51,810 bases of DNA from Minisyncoccota bacterium (GTDB taxonomy: Bacteria > Patescibacteriota > Minisyncoccia > Phycocordibacterales > UBA9973). Made by a program: the position numbers and the translations under genes. The stretch spans positions 1 through 51,810 of the forward strand of contig JAIPHX010000006.1 of the NCBI GenBank assembly GCA_021734995.1, in the 5' to 3' direction. A model generated the notes under the pieces. It saw only the letters and a list, made by a program, of their open reading frames with translations, did no database searches and was not told the origin of the DNA. Of this stretch, positions 3,921 through 47,340 are shown one piece after another. Numbering within the stretch: position 1 is the first letter of the stretch; every line of letters starts with the position of its first letter.

Positions 3921-5318
3921 ATGAAAATATTAAAATATTTGGTCGTTTTTTTGTTTGTTAGTTTAGTTTCATTACCAGTTTTTAATTTATTTGCTAGTGG
4001 AGATGCAGGGGAAGTAGGAGGTCATACTGCTTTTGCATCCACTTTCTTATGGATTGCGGTTATCCTTATTTTTGCCAAAGTAGCTAGTTTGGTAGAAAAA
4101 GTAGGTCAACCAGCAGTGCTTGGAGAGCTTGTAATGGGTGTAGTTCTTGGTAACCTTGGGTTACTTGGAATACACTTTTTAGATCCTATTGGCACTGATA
4201 GTATAATTGCTTTTTTGGCAGAGCTTGGAGTGGTCGTATTGTTGTTCCAGATTGGCTTGGAGTCAAACATCACTGAAATGCGTAAGGTGGGAGCAAAAGC
4301 TTTCATTGTAGCAGTGATTGGTGTCGTGGTTCCTTTTTTGCTTGGAACATACCTTATCGGTCCATGGCTTCTACCTGATTTTGCATTTATCACTCATCTT
4401 TTTGTGGGTGCTACTTTGACGGCTACTTCTGTGGGTATTACAGCTAGAGTATTTAAAGATTTAGGAACACTTAATTCCAAAGAATCTCAGATAGTATTGG
4501 GAGCAGCGGTAATAGACGATGTTCTTGGGCTTATTATCTTAGCTGTCGTGTCTGCTATTGCTACAGTCGGAGCAGTAGGGTTTGGTTTGATCGGATGGAT
4601 TACAGCAAAAGCTGTATTGTTTTTAGTTGGGGCTATTGTGATAGGGCAGTTTGGTGCTCCATATGTAGGAAAAGCATTGTCAAAAATTCACACAGGCCAT
4701 GGAATGAAATTTACTTTCGCAATATCTTTTGGATTATTGCTTGCATATTTAGCTCATTTGATTGGGCTTGCTCCGATCATAGGAGCTTTTGCTGCGGGTC
4801 TTGTGCTTGACGCAGTGCATTTTAAGACTTTCCGCAACCCAAAGATTGCTACTGAAATAGATGAAATTGCAGAAAAATTACCAGAAGAGCCAAAAGGATT
4901 ATTACAAAAAATTTCTCACGAATTTTCACATAAGCATGTAGAAGATTTGATAGAGCCATTATCGTTTTTCTTAGTACCGATCTTCTTCTTGATGACAGGG
5001 TTTAATGTAAAATTAGAATCTTTGTTTTCAGGAGAAGTGCTACTTCTTGCTTTGATTATTACCGTAGTCGCTATTATTGGTAAAGTAGTGGCAGGACTTG
5101 GAGCAGGGAAGGTAAACAAGCTTTTGGTAGGATTTGGTATGGTGCCTAGAGGGGAAGTAGGATTGATCTTCGTGATGATTGGAAGATCTCTAGGAGTGGT
5201 CTCTGATCAGTTGTTCTCTGCAATTGTCGTAATGGTCATTTTGACTACTTTGTGTACTCCTCCAATTTTGACTTATTTGATTAAAAAAGAGAAAAATAAA
5301 AGTTTAGCACAAGCTTAA
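3921..5318 (+). CDS. Cation:proton antiporter (CPA2, KefB/NapA family)
   Basis: About 12 hydrophobic segments; motifs LAELGVVVLLFQIGLE, TATSVGIT, AAVIDDVLG and GMVPRGEVGLI. Confidence 0.92.
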   Translation: MKILKYLVVFLFVSLVSLPVFNLFASGDAGEVGGHTAFASTFLWIAVILIFAKVASLVEKVGQPAVLGELVMGVVLGNLGLLGIHFLDPIGTDSIIAFLAELGVVVLLFQIGLESNITEMRKVGAKAFIVAVIGVVVPFLLGTYLIGPWLLPDFAFITHLFVGATLTATSVGITARVFKDLGTLNSKESQIVLGAAVIDDVLGLIILAVVSAIATVGAVGFGLIGWITAKAVLFLVGAIVIGQFGAPYVGKALSKIHTGHGMKFTFAISFGLLLAYLAHLIGLAPIIGAFAAGLVLDAVHFKTFRNPKIATEIDEIAEKLPEEPKGLLQKISHEFSHKHVEDLIEPLSFFLVPIFFLMTGFNVKLESLFSGEVLLLALIITVVAIIGKVVAGLGAGKVNKLLVGFGMVPRGEVGLIFVMIGRSLGVVSDQLFSAIVVMVILTTLCTPPILTYLIKKEKNKSLAQA

Positions 5319-5333
5319 TATTTGTTTTTCCAC

Positions 5334-5365
5334 AAAAAAAGCACCACGAAAGTGGTGTTTTTTTT
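5334..5365 (+). terminator. Intrinsic terminator (bidirectional type)
   Basis: aaaaaaa-gcaccac-gaaa-gtggtgt-ttttttt immediately after the antiporter gene. Confidence 0.85.
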
Positions 5366-5396
5366 GTTTGAAATTTTAAGATATATATGATAATAT

Positions 5397-6723: not shown

Positions 6724-6751
6724 TTGACATTTTTTTATCTTGTGTTATATT
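6724..6751 (+). promoter_or_regulatory. Sigma70 promoter of attenuator leader
   Basis: TTGACA 6724-6729, 16-nt spacer, extended -10 TG-T-TATATT (6746-6751); ATG follows 6 nt later. Confidence 0.7.
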
Positions 6752-6757
6752 CATATT

Positions 6758-6835
6758 ATGATATTAAAAATTAAAAACATAAATAATGTTCGTCGCACAA
6801 TCTCAAAATTTGAGGTTGTCTTCGAGTGTTTCTAA
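6758..6835 (+). CDS. Putative attenuator leader peptide MILKIKNINNVRRTISKFEVVFECF
   Basis: Leaderless ATG. Tandem Arg codons CGT CGC (6791-6796) sit directly before hairpin segment 1. Confidence 0.6.
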   Translation: MILKIKNINNVRRTISKFEVVFECF

Positions 6836-6891
6836 TTTTTTACTATAATAATTAAACTTTCCAAAACAGCCTCAAAAGAGGTTGTTTTTTT
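6797..6891 (+). promoter_or_regulatory. Four-segment transcription attenuator (1:2, 2:3, 3:4 terminator)
   Basis: seg1 acaatctcaa 6797-6806; seg2 ttgaggttgt 6810-6819; seg3 acagcctcaa 6866-6875; seg4 gaggttgt 6878-6885 followed by a T7 tract. Confidence 0.72.
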
Positions 6892-6926
6892 CTGTGTGAT
6901 ATTTAATAGTTAAAAATAAAAATAAA

Positions 6927-8600
6927 ATGAAAAAATTAAAATTAGTTATAGTTGGGGCAGGTCCTAAAGCTCTTAATATTCTAGCTAAGGCCCAAGCTTT
7001 AAAAAATAATGGTTGGGATGTTCCAGAAATTATTGTATTAGAAAAAAATGAAATTGGAGCAAATTGGTCTGGTAATTATGGTTATACTGATGGAAAAGGA
7101 GTCTTGGGTATTTCTCCTCTCAAAGTTTTTAATTACCCATCTAAATCTATTTTTGGAGAAGCAGTTATTTCTGATATGGATAAATATTCTTTTATAAAAT
7201 ATCTTACTCATACTGAAGGTCTTGAAAAGTGGGTTGATGGAGGAATGGGGTGGATCTTACATAAAGAATTTTCTGATTATCTAAAGTGGATAGGAGGATT
7301 TTTCCCTAAGAATATTTGTTTTGGAGAGGTAGTAAAAGTAAATACAAAAAACAAGCAATGGATTGTGACTTATAAAAATAAAAATAACACAAAAGAGATT
7401 GTGTGTGATGGTCTGGTATTTACTGGTCCAGGAGAAATATCAAATCCTTTTCCTATCAAGCCTGATGGTATAAGAGTGTTTGACGCAAAGAATTGGTGGA
7501 AAGATAAAAAAGATATTAATTTCTATGGAAAATTAGCTTTAATAGGAGGTGGAATTTCAGCAGGATCAATATTTGAATCTATCAGTAAAGATATGCTCAC
7601 TTTAGACTGGTATTCGAGGAGAGGATTGTTTACAAGAAGTGAAAATTTTGCTAACAATCAAAGATTCTCTGTCCCTGATTTGTGGCAACAGGTTCCTTTT
7701 TCTGTTAGGAAATCGTTTATATCTGCGACAGATAGAGGTTCTTTGGATTCAACAACACACAATTATATGGTAGCCAGTAGTCATTCTTTCAAGGAAATAA
7801 TTTGCGAGATAAATAAGGTAGAGATAATTGATAAAAAAATTAAAATCTCTTTTAAAGATGGTTTAAATTATAAAGAAAGGATTTATGACCAAATAATTTT
7901 GTGTACTGGTTTTGATAATATGGGTTTTTTAAATCTTTTTGCTGAAAACATAAAAAAAGAACTAAAAGAAAATATTGAAGAAAAAATTGAACCTGATTTA
8001 TCCGTGCTTGGATTAATTCCAAAATTATATTTACCAATGCTTTCTTATTTAAACGTTGGTATAGGATGTGCAACATTAGGTAGCCCATCAATTATGTCAG
8101 ATAGAGTATTGTCTTCTTTGGTTTCCAAGAAATCTAATTGTGAGAAAAATAAAAATGTAAAAGTATTCAAAGGAAGTTTGAAAGGAGATTATTTGATAGC
8201 ACAAAAAACTTTTTCCGCTGGAGAAATTTTAGTAAATGGGTATGCAACAAAAATCAGTACGCAAAGGACTACCACTTCTGTGCAAATAGGTATTGATTTA
8301 CACATGGAACCTTCTTTCTTTTTTGTAAAAGCAAATCATAGTTGTAATCCAAATTGTGGTATAAAATTAAATAATTCTGGTGGTTATTCTTTAGTAGCAA
8401 TGAAGGAAATAAAAAAAGGAGAAGAAATTACTTGGGATTATGCAATGTCAGAATGGGAGTCTATCGCGCTTGAAAATACGAATTGCAAGTGTGGTAGTTC
8501 TATTTGTAGAGGTGCTGTTGGTGGATATAAAGATTTATCACTAAAAATAAAACAAAAATACATTGGTTTCACTGCTCCATATCTAAAATATTTGGAATAA
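6927..8600 (+). CDS. Fusion: MbtG-like (SidA/IucD/PvdA family) flavin-dependent lysine N6-monooxygenase + SET/post-SET methyltransferase
   Basis: N-terminal VIVGAGPKA FAD motif, GANW..GYTDG...SP, IGGG NADPH motif, FTR, TDRG and PKLYLP..SDRVL all match my recollection of mycobacterial MbtG. The C-terminus has NHSCNPN, EEITWDY and CKCGSSICRG, the SET/post-SET signatures. Confidence 0.85.
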   Translation: MKKLKLVIVGAGPKALNILAKAQALKNNGWDVPEIIVLEKNEIGANWSGNYGYTDGKGVLGISPLKVFNYPSKSIFGEAVISDMDKYSFIKYLTHTEGLEKWVDGGMGWILHKEFSDYLKWIGGFFPKNICFGEVVKVNTKNKQWIVTYKNKNNTKEIVCDGLVFTGPGEISNPFPIKPDGIRVFDAKNWWKDKKDINFYGKLALIGGGISAGSIFESISKDMLTLDWYSRRGLFTRSENFANNQRFSVPDLWQQVPFSVRKSFISATDRGSLDSTTHNYMVASSHSFKEIICEINKVEIIDKKIKISFKDGLNYKERIYDQIILCTGFDNMGFLNLFAENIKKELKENIEEKIEPDLSVLGLIPKLYLPMLSYLNVGIGCATLGSPSIMSDRVLSSLVSKKSNCEKNKNVKVFKGSLKGDYLIAQKTFSAGEILVNGYATKISTQRTTTSVQIGIDLHMEPSFFFVKANHSCNPNCGIKLNNSGGYSLVAMKEIKKGEEITWDYAMSEWESIALENTNCKCGSSICRGAVGGYKDLSLKIKQKYIGFTAPYLKYLE

Positions 8601-43940: not shown

Positions 43941-44936
43941 ATGAAATTGGAAGTAATAAAGGAAGACCCTTTTAATATATTAAGCACTACAAGAGGTGTT
44001 CTAGAAAATGCACAGTATGTGTCTATTGATGAAAACAAGATTAATGATGATATTTCAAATAAAATATCAGAGAGATTTAAAAAGGGGATATATGATGAAT
44101 ATGAATTAGGTATTAATCTAACTGATAAATTAGAAGATAATTTACAAATAATTTTTATTGAAAATTCAGTTAATTTTTGTTTTTGGCCAACTAAAGGAGA
44201 ACCCAAATGGGAAGTTGAATGGCCGATTGGAGGAAAGATTTTTGGGGGATGGTTTGGTCTGGTAAACTGTTTTAAAAGAGCGATGGAAGAAAACATTCCA
44301 ATTTTAGATCCAAAATATTTAAGCAGTATTACATTAGAAGACGCTCGTAAAATCTTTCGAGGTAAAAATAATATAGATATACCTTTACTTGAAAAACGAG
44401 TAGAAAATTTAAGAGAAGTGGGAAATATTTTACAAGAAAAATTTGACGGTAAAATCATTAATTTATTGAAAGAAAGTAATTTTGATGCAATTAAAATAGT
44501 AAAAAGTATTTTAGAAAATTTTCCTTGTTATAAAGACGTTTCAATTTTAGATAATAAGAAAGTTGTCTTTTTGAAACGTGCACAAATTTGTGCCAATGAT
44601 TTTTCTTATGTTTTAAAAAATAGTGAAAATAAAATAACTAGTTTAGATAAATTAACCGCATATGCTGATTACAAATTACCACAATTATTGAGAATGTCTG
44701 GAGTAATTAATTATGAGGAATCTTTGGCAAATAAAATTGATACATTAACAGAATTAGCTCATGATAGTAGAGAAGAAATAGAAATTCGTTCTGCAACAAT
44801 ATGGGCTGTGGAATTACTAAGACAACGCATTGGTATTCTTTCCTCTGGAGAAATTGATAATACAATATGGTTGTTAAGTCAGGGAATTCAAAAGGAATCA
44901 AAACCATATCATCGTTCGAGAACAATTTTTTATTAA
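43941..44936 (+). CDS. Queuosine salvage protein (Q_salvage/DUF2419, QNG1-like glycosylase)
   Basis: NFCFWP..KW, KRAQI, LTAYADYKLPQLLR..GVI.Y, EIEIRSATIWAVE and D..IW. ATG 43941 is preferred. Confidence 0.88.
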   Translation: MKLEVIKEDPFNILSTTRGVLENAQYVSIDENKINDDISNKISERFKKGIYDEYELGINLTDKLEDNLQIIFIENSVNFCFWPTKGEPKWEVEWPIGGKIFGGWFGLVNCFKRAMEENIPILDPKYLSSITLEDARKIFRGKNNIDIPLLEKRVENLREVGNILQEKFDGKIINLLKESNFDAIKIVKSILENFPCYKDVSILDNKKVVFLKRAQICANDFSYVLKNSENKITSLDKLTAYADYKLPQLLRMSGVINYEESLANKIDTLTELAHDSREEIEIRSATIWAVELLRQRIGILSSGEIDNTIWLLSQGIQKESKPYHRSRTIFY

Positions 44937-44945
44937 ATGTTAGTT

Positions 44946-45044
44946 CGATTCCTAAAAGGGTGTTGATTTTCACAAACGAAAAAAGCCTTAAAATTAAGGC
45001 TTCTCGTGCTAGCACGTGATGGTGACCTTTCCAGGAATCTAACC
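44946..45044 (-). repeat. Degenerate copy of tRNA-Glu(CTC) 3' end plus downstream flank (att-like)
   Basis: aaaagccttaaaattaaggcttctcgtgctagcacgtgatggtgacc..ggaatctaacc matches about 46604-46702, including the acceptor and T arm. Confidence 0.85.
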
Positions 45045-45084
45045 TTCTCGTGCTAGCTCTAGAAGGGTGCTCTTATTAGGGGTC

Positions 45085-45113
45085 TTGTAACTTAGCAATA
45101 TCTGAATTATAAT
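45085..45113 (+). promoter_or_regulatory. Sigma70 promoter of trp leader
   Basis: TTGTAA 45085-45090, 17-nt spacer, TATAAT 45108-45113; ATG 6 nt later. Confidence 0.8.
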
Positions 45114-45119
45114 AAAAAT

Positions 45120-45179
45120 ATGTTAAGAAAAAGCAATTATATCAATATAGCATGGTGGACAGCTCACATAAGTGGGTAG
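45120..45179 (+). CDS. trpL: trp leader peptide MLRKSNYINIAWWTAHISG
   Basis: Tandem TGG TGG at 45153-45158, upstream of trpB. Confidence 0.88.
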   Translation: MLRKSNYINIAWWTAHISG

Positions 45180-45244
45180 TCTTTGTTGTATTTATAATTA
45201 TTTTTAAGTAATACATGACAACCCACATAATTGTGGGCTTTTTT
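45158..45244 (+). promoter_or_regulatory. trp attenuator
   Basis: seg1 gacagctcac 45158-45167; seg2 gtgggtagtc 45172-45181; seg3 gacaacccac 45217-45226; terminator cccaca-taat-tgtggg followed by T6. Confidence 0.88.
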
Positions 45245-45365
45245 ATTTTCTAATTAAACCTATATGAATAAATTTATTTTTAAACAACATTGTACTGAAT
45301 TCTGGCGTAATTAAGAAACGTTTAGTTTTTACATTACTATTTTAAAAAATAAAAATATAAATTAT

Positions 45366-46571
45366 ATGAAAACAGAAATAAAATCATTAAAAAATTTACC
45401 AGATGAAAATGGGTATTACGGAAAATTTGGAGGAAGTTTTATTCCTCCTCAATTAGTGGAACCATTAAAAGAAATAGAACGAGAATATTTAAAAGCGAAA
45501 AATGATCCAGAATTTCAAAAAGAATATGCTGATTTACTAAAGAATTATGTTGGCCGTCCTTCACCACTTTATTTTGCAAAAAATATAACAGAAAAATTAG
45601 GTGGAGCAAAAGTATATTTAAAACGTGAAGATTTAAACCATACTGGCGCCCATAAAATAAATCACTGTCTAGGGGAAGTACTTCTTGCTAAAAGAATGGG
45701 GAAGAAAAAGGTTTTAGCTGAAACTGGAGCAGGGCAACATGGAGTTGCTTTGGCTACAGCTGCAGCCTTACTTGGTCTTGAGTGTGAAATTCATATGGGT
45801 TCTATTGATATAGAAAAACAACAACCAAATGTTATTCGTATGAAATTACTCGGAGCAAAAGTTGTAGAAGTTAATACAGGGGGTAAATGTCTTAAGGATG
45901 CAGTGGATAGTGCTTTTGCAACATTTATAGAAGAATACAAGACTACATTTTTTGCAATTGGTTCTGTAGTGGGACCTCATCCATATCCGATGATAGTGAG
46001 AGATTTTCAATCTATTGTAGGGAAAGAAGCCAAAAAACAAATATTGGAACAAGAAAAAAGATTACCAGATTATATAATCGGTTGTGTTGGTGGTGGATCA
46101 AATGCGATTGGATTATTTAATGAATTTCTTGATGATGAAGTTAGCCTTATCGGAGTGGAGCCAGCAGGCAGGGGTTCAGGTATTGGTGAACATGCTGCTA
46201 CTATTACATATGGAACAGAGGGTGTAATACATGGTATGAAGACTATTGTATTGCAAGATGAAAAAGGAGAGCCAAATAGTGTTCACTCTATTGCATCAGG
46301 GTTAGATTATCCTGGTGTTGGACCTATTCATGCTTACCTCAAAGCTATTGGAAGAGTCGAATATACTTATGCAAGTGATGATGAAACGATAAAAGCATTT
46401 TTGGAATTATCTAAGGTTGAGGGAATTATTCCAGCTCTTGAAAGTGCTCATGCAGTAGCGTATGCGTTGAAACTAGCTTCAACTCTAAGTAAAGATAAAA
46501 TCATAATAGTTAATCTTTCTGGTCGTGGAGATAAAGATATTGATTATGTAGCTTCATTATTAAAAATATAA
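45366..46571 (+). CDS. trpB: Tryptophan synthase beta chain (stand-alone in window)
   Basis: [10 protein letters not shown] (PLP Lys), [30 protein letters not shown] and NLSGRGDKD. Confidence 0.98.
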
Positions 46572-46676
46572 TAATTCTATCAAATAATAAAATTGAATAA
46601 GTTTGATTCTCATAAGGGTGCTAATTTTTACACACACAAAAAGCCTTAAAATAAGGCTTCTCGTGCTAGCACTTGA

Positions 46677-46751
46677 TGGTGACCCTACCGGGAATCGAAC
46701 CCGGATTACCGCCTTGAGAAGGCGATGTCCTAACCGTTAGACGATAGGGCC
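46677..46751 (-). tRNA. trnE: tRNA-Glu (CTC)
   Basis: Reverse complement is ggccctatcgtctaacggttaggacatcgcc-ttCTCaa-ggcggtaatccgggttcgattcccggtagggtcacca; CCA encoded. Confidence 0.96.
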
Positions 46752-46797
46752 AAAATATACCAACATAAAGATATTAGCATTTTTGGAGAAAAATAAA

Positions 46798-46827
46798 AAC
46801 GTGTATGCCTAGATAGGCATACACGTT
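46798..46827. repeat. Perfect 13-bp inverted repeat between divergent tRNA-Glu and ACT gene
   Basis: aacgtgtatgcct-agat-aggcatacacgtt; T-rich tail on the minus strand. Confidence 0.75.
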
Positions 46828-46935
46828 AATACATGTTAATTGAATAAAGTAAAGTTTATAAAAATAAGAAAAGAAAAATTATAAGCATAGACTAAGATTA
46901 GACAAGGATACATGCTTTTGATAATATATCAACAT

Positions 46936-47340
46936 ATGGAAGGAGAAAGAGATTTACATAAAATATTAAAGACAATGAACCCCAAGCTTAATACTGGAGA
47001 TTATGTTTTTTGTTCAGTAAAGAATTTAAAATTGATAGATGTGCAAGATACAAAAAATGTAATTATGACTTTTATAGAAAAAGAAGGATTTACTATTATT
47101 TTAAAAAAAGAAATTGCTGATAAACTTAATTTAAAGTATTATCTAGTTACTTCTTGGATTACTCTAACAGTCCATTCATCTTTAGAAGCAATAGGTCTTA
47201 CTTCTACTTTTTCAAAAGCGCTTGCAGAGAAAGAAGTGGGTTGCAATGTTGTGGCTGCTTTTTACCATGATCATATTTTTGTACCTAAAAAAGATGCTAA
47301 AAAAGCAATGAATATTTTAAAAGGGCTTACAAAACAATAA
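46936..47340 (+). CDS. ACT-domain protein (DUF2241/ACT_7 type)
   Basis: GERDL..IL..M.P.L..GDYVF, F.EKEGFT and ITLTVHSSLEAIGLT..CNVVAAFYHDHIFV. Confidence 0.88.
   Translation: MEGERDLHKILKTMNPKLNTGDYVFCSVKNLKLIDVQDTKNVIMTFIEKEGFTIILKKEIADKLNLKYYLVTSWITLTVHSSLEAIGLTSTFSKALAEKEVGCNVVAAFYHDHIFVPKKDAKKAMNILKGLTKQ

Follow-up and report, generated by a model that had tools for sequence, protein, structure and literature searches.

A probable leaderless tryptophan attenuator and a second conserved small open reading frame on an orphan trpB cassette of Candidate Phyla Radiation bacteria

Results

The genome of a Minisyncoccota bacterium (assembly GCA_021734995.1; 789 kb in 10 contigs, 33% G+C, 97% complete) was analysed around a single tryptophan gene, trpB, which lies on contig 4 (JAIPHX010000006.1); the stretch studied, positions 1 to 51,810 of this contig, is called the window hereafter. 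Sequence comparison indicated that the leader in front of trpB is probably a ribosome-mediated trp attenuator controlling this lone gene. Three sequence features of this functional class were found, namely an open reading frame (ORF) with clustered Trp codons, mutually exclusive stems whose choice depends on the position of the ribosome, and an intrinsic terminator. The assignment is supported by a layout shared by 28 leader variants, by folding in three ribosome states, by the lack of trpA, trpC and trpE, and by TrpB relatives titled as members of the Candidate Phyla Radiation (CPR). Together with a second small upstream ORF (uORF2), the promoter, leader, attenuator and trpB apparently constitute a mobile one-gene cassette among CPR bacteria, as the boundaries of related loci indicate.

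The elements of the cassette all lie on the forward strand. The promoter (45085-45113) consists of a -35 box TTGTAA (45085-45090), a 17-nt spacer and a -10 box TATAAT (45108-45113), and the six nucleotides AAAAAT separate it from the ATG at 45120. This ATG opens a leader peptide ORF of 19 codons (45120-45179, MLRKSNYINIAWWTAHISG) with Trp-Trp at codons 12 and 13 (TGG TGG, 45153-45158) and a TAG stop at 45177-45179. Three stems can be drawn. Stem 1:2, the anti-antiterminator or pause hairpin (45135-45199), has the core GCTCAC-ATAA-GTGGGT (45162-45177) and is lengthened in the minimum-energy fold, where codons 6-11 pair with the stretch 3' of the stop (about 45135-45199). The antiterminator 2:3 (45172-45226) pairs GTGGGTAGTC (45172-45181) with GACAACCCAC (45217-45226) and overlaps the 5' arm of the intrinsic terminator 3:4 (45222-45244), so that the two are mutually exclusive; the latter is formed by CCCACA-TAAT-TGTGGG (45222-45237), a single C and six T residues (45239-45244). 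The 136-nt leader folds at -32.5 kcal/mol (z = -3.4), and none of 200 dinucleotide shuffles was as stable.

Promoter-like hexamer pairs occur in the window at the level expected by chance (18 observed versus 17.9 expected in shuffled AT-rich sequence), and the case for promoter and leader therefore rests on comparison and conservation rather than on the motif. A sequence-only reading made earlier had described the locus as a complete attenuator of the E. coli trpL type, and every element that it listed (the 17-nt-spaced promoter, the ATG 6 nt after the -10 box, the WW leader, the three stems and the T6 tail) is indeed present in the sequence. The working logic is the same as that of trpL, but the leader is not a member of the corresponding family: Rfam RF00513 (Trp_leader) matched 45151-45246 at 22.9 bits (E = 0.13), below the gathering score of 41, and the alignment covered just UGGUGG and the terminator. 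A T-box was not found in 44500-47000 at E <= 10, and other regulatory Rfam families also gave no match there.

From these elements, a course of events can be proposed in which the cell, an auxotroph, would make Trp from scavenged indole and serine only when charged tRNA-Trp is scarce. The transcript most likely begins with the A of the ATG at 45120 or a nucleotide adjoining it, as the promoter geometry suggests, and a 70S ribosome would translate the 19-codon leader without a 5' untranslated region (UTR). At low Trp-tRNA the ribosome would stall at the two UGG codons, leaving GTGGGTAGTC free to pair with GACAACCCAC, and this antiterminator pairing would block the CCCACA/TGTGGG-T6 terminator, allowing RNA polymerase to read on. 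At ample Trp-tRNA the ribosome would reach the UAG and cover region 2, the terminator would form, and transcription would stop before uORF2 and trpB.

Relatives of the cassette were gathered from a genome collection, a metagenome collection, pattern scans and exact-protein look-ups. Conservation of the leader upstream of CPR trpB genes had been proposed as a check of the attenuator, and the layout proved to be kept in 28 leaders of distinct sequence, which precede members of this trpB clade in Paceibacteria, Nomurabacteria and Magasanikbacteria. A short WW ORF is present in all of them (two have WWW and two a single W), its Trp codons located 5-12 codons before the stop, followed by a hairpin and a T-run; 25 of the 28 have TAnnnT at a distance of exactly 6 nt from the start codon, and 24 a TTGnnn -35 box 16-17 nt further upstream. 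A covariance model, R1, retrieved the 16 closest full-length leaders at 97-151 bits. Among these 16, the pairs of the terminator state, including stem 1:2, were formed in 92% of the cells scored (36-46% in a slid control), those of the antiterminator in 88.6% (control 37-56%), and the covariation score of the antiterminator exceeded that of 499 out of 500 shuffles. One further R1 match in the window, at 5277-5369 (33.9 bits), was considered as a second trp-type leader and rejected, being an ordinary post-gene terminator (GCACCACGAAAGTGGTG and T8).

The stronger evidence comes from deep relatives, which remake the same three-stem logic from different sequence. Regions 2, 3 and 4 vary, the pairing stretches being GTGGGT/ACCCAC in the window, GCGGG/CCCGT in L012, GCAGGCGG/CCGCCTGC in L101 and L102, GGGCAGT/ACTGCCC in L190, CACGGGT/GCCCGTG in L194 and ACTGC.../GGGCAGT in L226, a Magasanikbacteria bin. 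The leaders were folded in three ways: free, with a ribosome mask covering the last Trp codon and 13 nt more, and with one covering the stop codon and 12 nt more. With the Trp codons masked, 21 of 27 variants exchanged the terminator for the antiterminator; with the stop codon masked, all 27 formed the terminator.

Several observations weigh against the attenuator. The terminator stem of the window has only 6 bp; 6 of the 27 variants showed no switch in the simple equilibrium fold; and the leader ATG is ATA in the relative L005. The stems are near-invariant among the 16 close leaders, where formal covariation is modest: 4 double changes were found in 32 pairs, and between 26 and 63 of 500 shuffles reached the observed values. 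Because of this near-invariance, weight was put on the deeply diverged variants rebuilding the same logic.

It might be argued that the leader ORF is untranslated and the WW incidental, control being exerted by a TrpR-like repressor, a TRAP-like protein or a T-box. Some related cassettes do contain an added TrpR-family gene (Pfam Trp_repressor), located in L192 downstream of trpB, and such genes next to trpB, as well as palindromes resembling GTACTAGTAC at the leader promoter (L013, L015, L094), would suit control of this kind. However, the genome of the window has no match to the Trp_repressor family and the locus none to the T-box or other Rfam families; 25-28 of the 28 leaders keep the WW in frame, the length of the ORF and the spacing between -10 box and ATG despite changing flanks; and the TrpR-carrying cassettes still have a W leader. 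An untranslated leader thus appears extremely improbable, and we keep to the ribosome-mediated attenuator.

Palindromes resembling the E. coli trp operator (ATACTAGCATACTAGTAT, GTACTAGTAC) overlap the -10 box and the leader start in L013, L015, L094 and L096, and repression and attenuation are apparently combined in those palindrome-bearing CPR cassettes that lie next to a Trp_repressor-family gene. In L018, L019 and L020, from Gracilibacteria and Peribacteria bins, a TrpR/YerC-like ORF precedes trpB by about 150-250 nt. It has the C-terminal sequence P(R/S)WWKDFKSW and is directly followed by a hairpin and a T-run, with no separate leader peptide; the tail of this ORF may act as a sensor by its Trp codons.

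The short distance between promoter and leader ATG agrees with how genes start in this genome. Across 621 crude gene starts, no Shine-Dalgarno (SD) enrichment was observed (SD-like words at -20 to -5 in 22, versus 43 in the control window), TAnnnT was located exactly at -12 to -7 in 24.5% (3-10% at other offsets), and G was elevated at -14 and -16, as in an extended -10 box. In this CPR genome, first genes thus seem to be transcribed as leaderless mRNAs by default. The leader ORF shows this standard first-gene geometry, with a -10 box 6 nt upstream and no SD site, and its translation is therefore supported; its transcription start is predicted from the same geometry. The leader peptide had been singled out as leaderless, and the geometry agrees, but being leaderless is apparently the norm of the genome and no peculiarity of this ORF. 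An Arg-Arg leader at 6758 (region 6726-6900), which had been thought to gain support from the trp leader, consists of TTGACA, 17 nt, TATATT, 6 nt and ATG, followed by the alternative hairpins TTTGAGGTTGTC and ACAGCCTCAAA and the terminator CCTCAAAAGAGG with a T-run; the geometry of -10 box, 6 nt and ATG is identical in both leaders, which back each other.

The gene behind the attenuator (trpB, 45366-46571) encodes a tryptophan synthase beta subunit of the TrpB1 type with 401 amino acids. The protein is 53% identical to E. coli TrpB (tblastn), matches Pfam PALP at 3e-41, and retains Lys87, Glu109, Asp305, the GGGSN loop and other catalytic positions (E. coli numbering). All strong matches in the Protein Data Bank (PDB) are TrpB, the best being 5ey5_B, the reconstructed ancestral LBCA TrpB. 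Its nearest relatives (82-96% identity) belong to metagenome bins whose titles name Candidatus Paceibacterota, Nomurabacteria or "Saccharibacteria". A phylogeny had been suggested as a way to trace the donor of the gene; in a quick FastTree analysis TrpB fell into a strongly supported clade of 21 sequences, mostly CPR-titled, but a donor outside the CPR was not identifiable. The protein contains no Trp, although 3.6 residues would be expected from the 0.89% Trp of the genome, and the same holds for 120 out of 120 clade members retrieved. TrpB can therefore be made during Trp starvation, which fits the proposed control.

As had been assumed from the window, trpB is a lone gene, the only trp gene both there and in the genome as a whole. 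Queries with E. coli TrpA, TrpC, TrpD and TrpE gave no tblastn match in the genome except weak ones to the amidotransferase half of TrpD. Pfam Trp_syntA was absent from this genome and from eight other cassette genomes, while the same search was positive in 14 of 14 controls; Pfam IGPS and Chorismate_bind were likewise absent from the genome, so that trpA, trpC and trpE are missing by both tblastn and profiles. A profile search for the tryptophanase family returned nothing at the cut-off. The genome has a single tRNA-Trp(CCA), and TGA serves as a stop. The absence of trpA, trpC and trpE, together with the CPR-titled TrpB relatives, supports the earlier suggestion of indole salvage in a presumed auxotroph. 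TrpA-independent activity gained nothing from a comparison with the "Res6" set of stand-alone TrpB (E36, E42, T53, S187, A279 and M280 in LBCA numbering; PMC11917138): two of the six positions match (E36, S187) and the other four are A, S, M and K, a result that is uninformative.

The boundaries of the cassette were drawn from the 16 close-leader loci (L004-L012, L084, L090, L165, L166, L168, L169 and L171). DNA resembling the window (72-88% identity) starts at 45083-45108, i.e., at the -35/-10 box, counting only loci that extend that far, and similarity stops at 46537-46592, no more than about 35 nt from the end of trpB. Outside this 1.5-kb unit from promoter to stop, the loci share neither related flanks nor the same neighbouring genes. 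Moreover, trpB was not found in 36 genomes of the same genus. The proposal that attenuation operates in this lineage therefore needs some rewording: the attenuator is supported, but what it reveals concerns a cassette that circulates among CPR bacteria more than this lineage alone.

Two direct-repeat copies, 81-84% identical, bracket the cassette. The left copy (103 nt, 44942-45044), which was also recovered by a DNA search of the own genome, contains a decayed tRNA-Glu 3' end and a downstream terminator hairpin, and the right copy (46600-46701) includes the true 3' end of tRNA-Glu(CTC) with its terminator. This tRNA gene (46677-46751, reverse strand; ARAGORN; 62 bits to the Rfam tRNA family) is the apparent integration site. 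The repeats suggest that integration took place at the tRNA through recombination involving a homologous, diverged segment, and no integrase lies nearby. An empty site was not recovered in genomes of the same genus, where only the tRNA matched at the DNA level and synteny was poor; in one contig of the genus RmuC adjoins tRNA-Glu and the contig ends at the tRNA. Just upstream of the cassette, a queuosine-salvage gene (Q_salvage, PF10343; 43896-44936) is absent from 40 genomes of the same genus, and the neighbourhood is apparently one in which salvage genes accumulate by horizontal transfer.

A second small ORF, which the earlier reading had missed, was found between the terminator and trpB. 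This uORF2 (45264-45314) encodes MNKFIFKQHCTEFWRN and contains a single Trp codon at 45303-45305, which is the only one downstream of the attenuator because TrpB has no Trp. In 18 close cassettes the entropies of its three codon positions are 0.20, 0.32 and 0.69; the changes are synonymous (CAT/CAC, TGT/TGC, GAA/GAG, TTC/TTT, CGT/CGC/CGA), matching what is expected of a translated ORF. The consensus is x-K-[FY]-I-F-K-x-[HR]-C-T-E-[FY]-W-R, of which relatives ranging from Paceibacteria to Magasanikbacteria retain the core [HR]-C-[TN]-E-[FY]-W-R despite diverged DNA; after W-R, the ORF runs on for 0-17 unconstrained residues. Across the same divergences, the first leader peptide keeps little beyond WW. 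Deep relatives read MDHFIFKHRCTEFWR... or MPHYIFYNRCTEYWR..., the version of Magasanikbacteria is MTKYFFYNRCTEYWRK, and that of a bin labelled Bdellovibrionales reads MKNCLKHYYFQNRCTEFWR....

A strict back-translated pattern of uORF2 gave 15 matches in 596 Gb, and all those examined lie upstream of this trpB clade, except for L174, where trpB downstream was not confirmed. In this Doudnabacteria bin a uORF2-like ORF (MTRYFFKDHCTETWRSLLAT, about 7788-7816, reverse strand) is followed not by the customary short, AT-rich spacer but by a long GC-rich structured stretch. With a looser pattern, 57 matches were obtained, of which about 35 would be expected by chance; trpB was located downstream at the 13 loci of the strict scan and at 3 of 44 newly fetched ones, leaving 41 without trpB. 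L174 apart, the matches set in a short-ORF context were all located upstream of trpB. Cassettes of the L013/L015 type are devoid of uORF2.

The Trp codon of uORF2 contributes the first bases of a local hairpin, hairpin 2 (45304-45330), formed by GGCGT (45304-45308) and ACGTT (45318-45322) and followed by TTTTT (45326-45330); the GG of the UGG codon starts the 5' arm of such a hairpin in 19 of 24 variants. Tentatively, uORF2 and hairpin 2 could be seen as a second, multiplicative gate responding to Trp-tRNA, which would lower leaky expression: read-through transcripts would reach uORF2 as a second checkpoint, and a ribosome held on the UGG would keep hairpin 2 open. Some features do not sit well with such a gate. 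Hairpin 2 is weak (mean z = -0.9), and the minimum-energy fold of the window is another structure. As a clear terminator it was rejected, its stability being modest and its T-run, which most close variants have, being absent from L190, L192 and L194. A ribosome at the uORF2 stop would cover hairpin 2 as well, so that a kinetic Trp gate needs pausing of the polymerase, and the conserved peptide is not accounted for by simple codon sensing.

This conserved peptide would be accounted for if uORF2 were a ligand-sensing arrest peptide, whose stall would remodel hairpin 2 and thereby gate trpB. The nascent chain with [HR]CTE[FY]WR would act from within the exit tunnel, and its ligand would be free Trp, as in TnaC, or indole, the TrpB substrate, in analogy to leaders induced by a substrate. 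A motif of about 10 residues that ends in W-R, where conservation stops 1-2 residues after the Trp, and that is followed by 0-17 free residues corresponds to the known pattern of arrest peptides, and the stall site would fall on the 5' arm of hairpin 2. A stall on a hairpin arm is the geometry of inducible leaders of the ermC, cat and tnaC type. We nevertheless consider an arrest peptide unlikely: the TnaC spacing (W12, D16, P24-stop) was not found in uORF2, in which neither D nor P is conserved; sensing of charged tRNA would account just as well for a Trp codon where the stall is presumed; and repression by free Trp needs a stall that lowers expression, which is not obvious from the geometry. 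If true, it would mean an undescribed family of regulatory nascent peptides, kept across CPR classes and present only ahead of this orphan trpB clade, and a trpB expressed only when Trp is needed and indole available.

The distance between uORF2 and trpB bears on a further explanation, by which uORF2 would mainly deliver ribosomes to trpB through termination-reinitiation or read-in, the Trp codon and hairpin being secondary. In a genome without an SD signal this would be useful, and the uORF2 stop overlaps or runs into the trpB start in L009, L014, L169 and L194. Two independent in-frame fusions of uORF2 and TrpB also exist, namely L006 (3905-5207) and P0082 (7 member sequences), with the N-terminal extensions MNKFIFKQHCTEFWR... 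or MKHFKFKNHCTEFWR.... In the window and most close relatives, however, the stop is located 42-54 nt before the trpB ATG, uORF2 would itself need internal initiation without an SD site, and delivery alone leaves the conserved peptide and the invariant Trp codon over. As the main role of uORF2, ribosome delivery therefore seems quite unlikely.

The same fusions could be taken as a sign that uORF2 is a stable micro-protein acting on TrpB, e.g., as a surrogate for the missing TrpA activator. The peptide, including its His and Cys, is conserved and co-occurs with lone trpB, with L174 as the exception among the strict-pattern matches. Its C-terminal length of 0-17 unconstrained residues is unusual for a folded or binding peptide, though, and uORF2 is missing altogether from L013/L015-type cassettes, which makes a micro-protein very improbable. 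We also considered whether uORF2 replaces a TrpR-type repressor and rejected this, given that L192 has leader, uORF2, trpB and Trp_repressor together and that two further genomes of the uORF2 type carry TrpR elsewhere. Our preferred, if tentative, reading of uORF2 is still that of a second Trp-tRNA gate behind the attenuator.

Discussion

The CPR (Patescibacteria) are largely uncultured. Comparative evidence from the cassette indicates that classical attenuation coupling transcription and translation operates in the CPR, on apparently leaderless mRNAs and in genomes without SD sites. It also implies a metabolic dependence, in which Trp would be made from indole released by neighbours or hosts, and this function of converting indole to Trp apparently rides on a self-regulating unit of 1.5 kb that moves between CPR genomes. 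In uORF2, the cassette provides a small candidate for a new nascent-peptide regulator.

Like enterobacterial trpL, the cassette shows a leader with tandem Trp codons, exclusive 1:2, 2:3 and 3:4 stems, and a U-tract terminator before a biosynthetic gene, and by the same logic a ribosome at the stop would lead to termination and one at the Trp codons to read-through. In contrast to trpL, with which it is not homologous in sequence or structure, the cassette leader has no SD site and, by its geometry, probably no 5' UTR, would control a single salvage gene instead of a pathway operon, is followed by a second conserved uORF, and is mobile in the CPR.

Regarding uORF2, the anti-TRAP leader rtpLP of B. 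subtilis and pyrBI of E. coli are examples in which expression depends on where the ribosome stands with respect to a hairpin or start site downstream. The pyrBI leader ORF reads through the terminator hairpin, and the long forms of uORF2 in L010-L012 and L166 likewise read through theirs; unlike in these leaders, the peptide of uORF2 is conserved. With TnaC and SpeFL, uORF2 shares a short peptide conserved to a defined point, a critical Trp, and a stall that would remodel the downstream RNA. It differs from TnaC in missing the W12-x3-D16-x7-P24-stop spacing, in a Trp adjoining the presumed stall site, and in the downstream gene, which is biosynthetic and not catabolic.

A literature search returned no description of attenuators or of orphan trpB regulation in CPR bacteria. 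For the leaderless leader peptide, the nearest precedent is apparently that of the mycobacterial leaderless polycysteine short ORFs, which are reported to attenuate downstream operons (Canestrari et al., bioRxiv 10.1101/834739). Like these, the trp leader would be a tiny leaderless first ORF rich in the regulatory amino acid, with stalling controlling downstream expression; the polycysteine ORFs belong to Actinobacteria and use Cys, while the CPR cassette has an explicit pair of terminator and antiterminator and a second uORF.

The nearest biological parallel is indole salvage by trpRBA of Chlamydia trachomatis, in which TrpA is kept as an allosteric partner (PMC8376405). Both concern host-dependent organisms with a truncated pathway that obtain Trp from scavenged indole, and, while Chlamydia has TrpR and an attenuator in the trpR-trpB spacer, some related CPR cassettes also pair trpB with a TrpR-family gene. 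The cassette genomes differ from Chlamydia in being devoid of TrpA, and the genome of the window also in being devoid of TrpR. Compared with all these systems, the new aspect here is a predicted leaderless Trp attenuator on a mobile orphan-trpB cassette in the CPR, accompanied by an extra conserved uORF.

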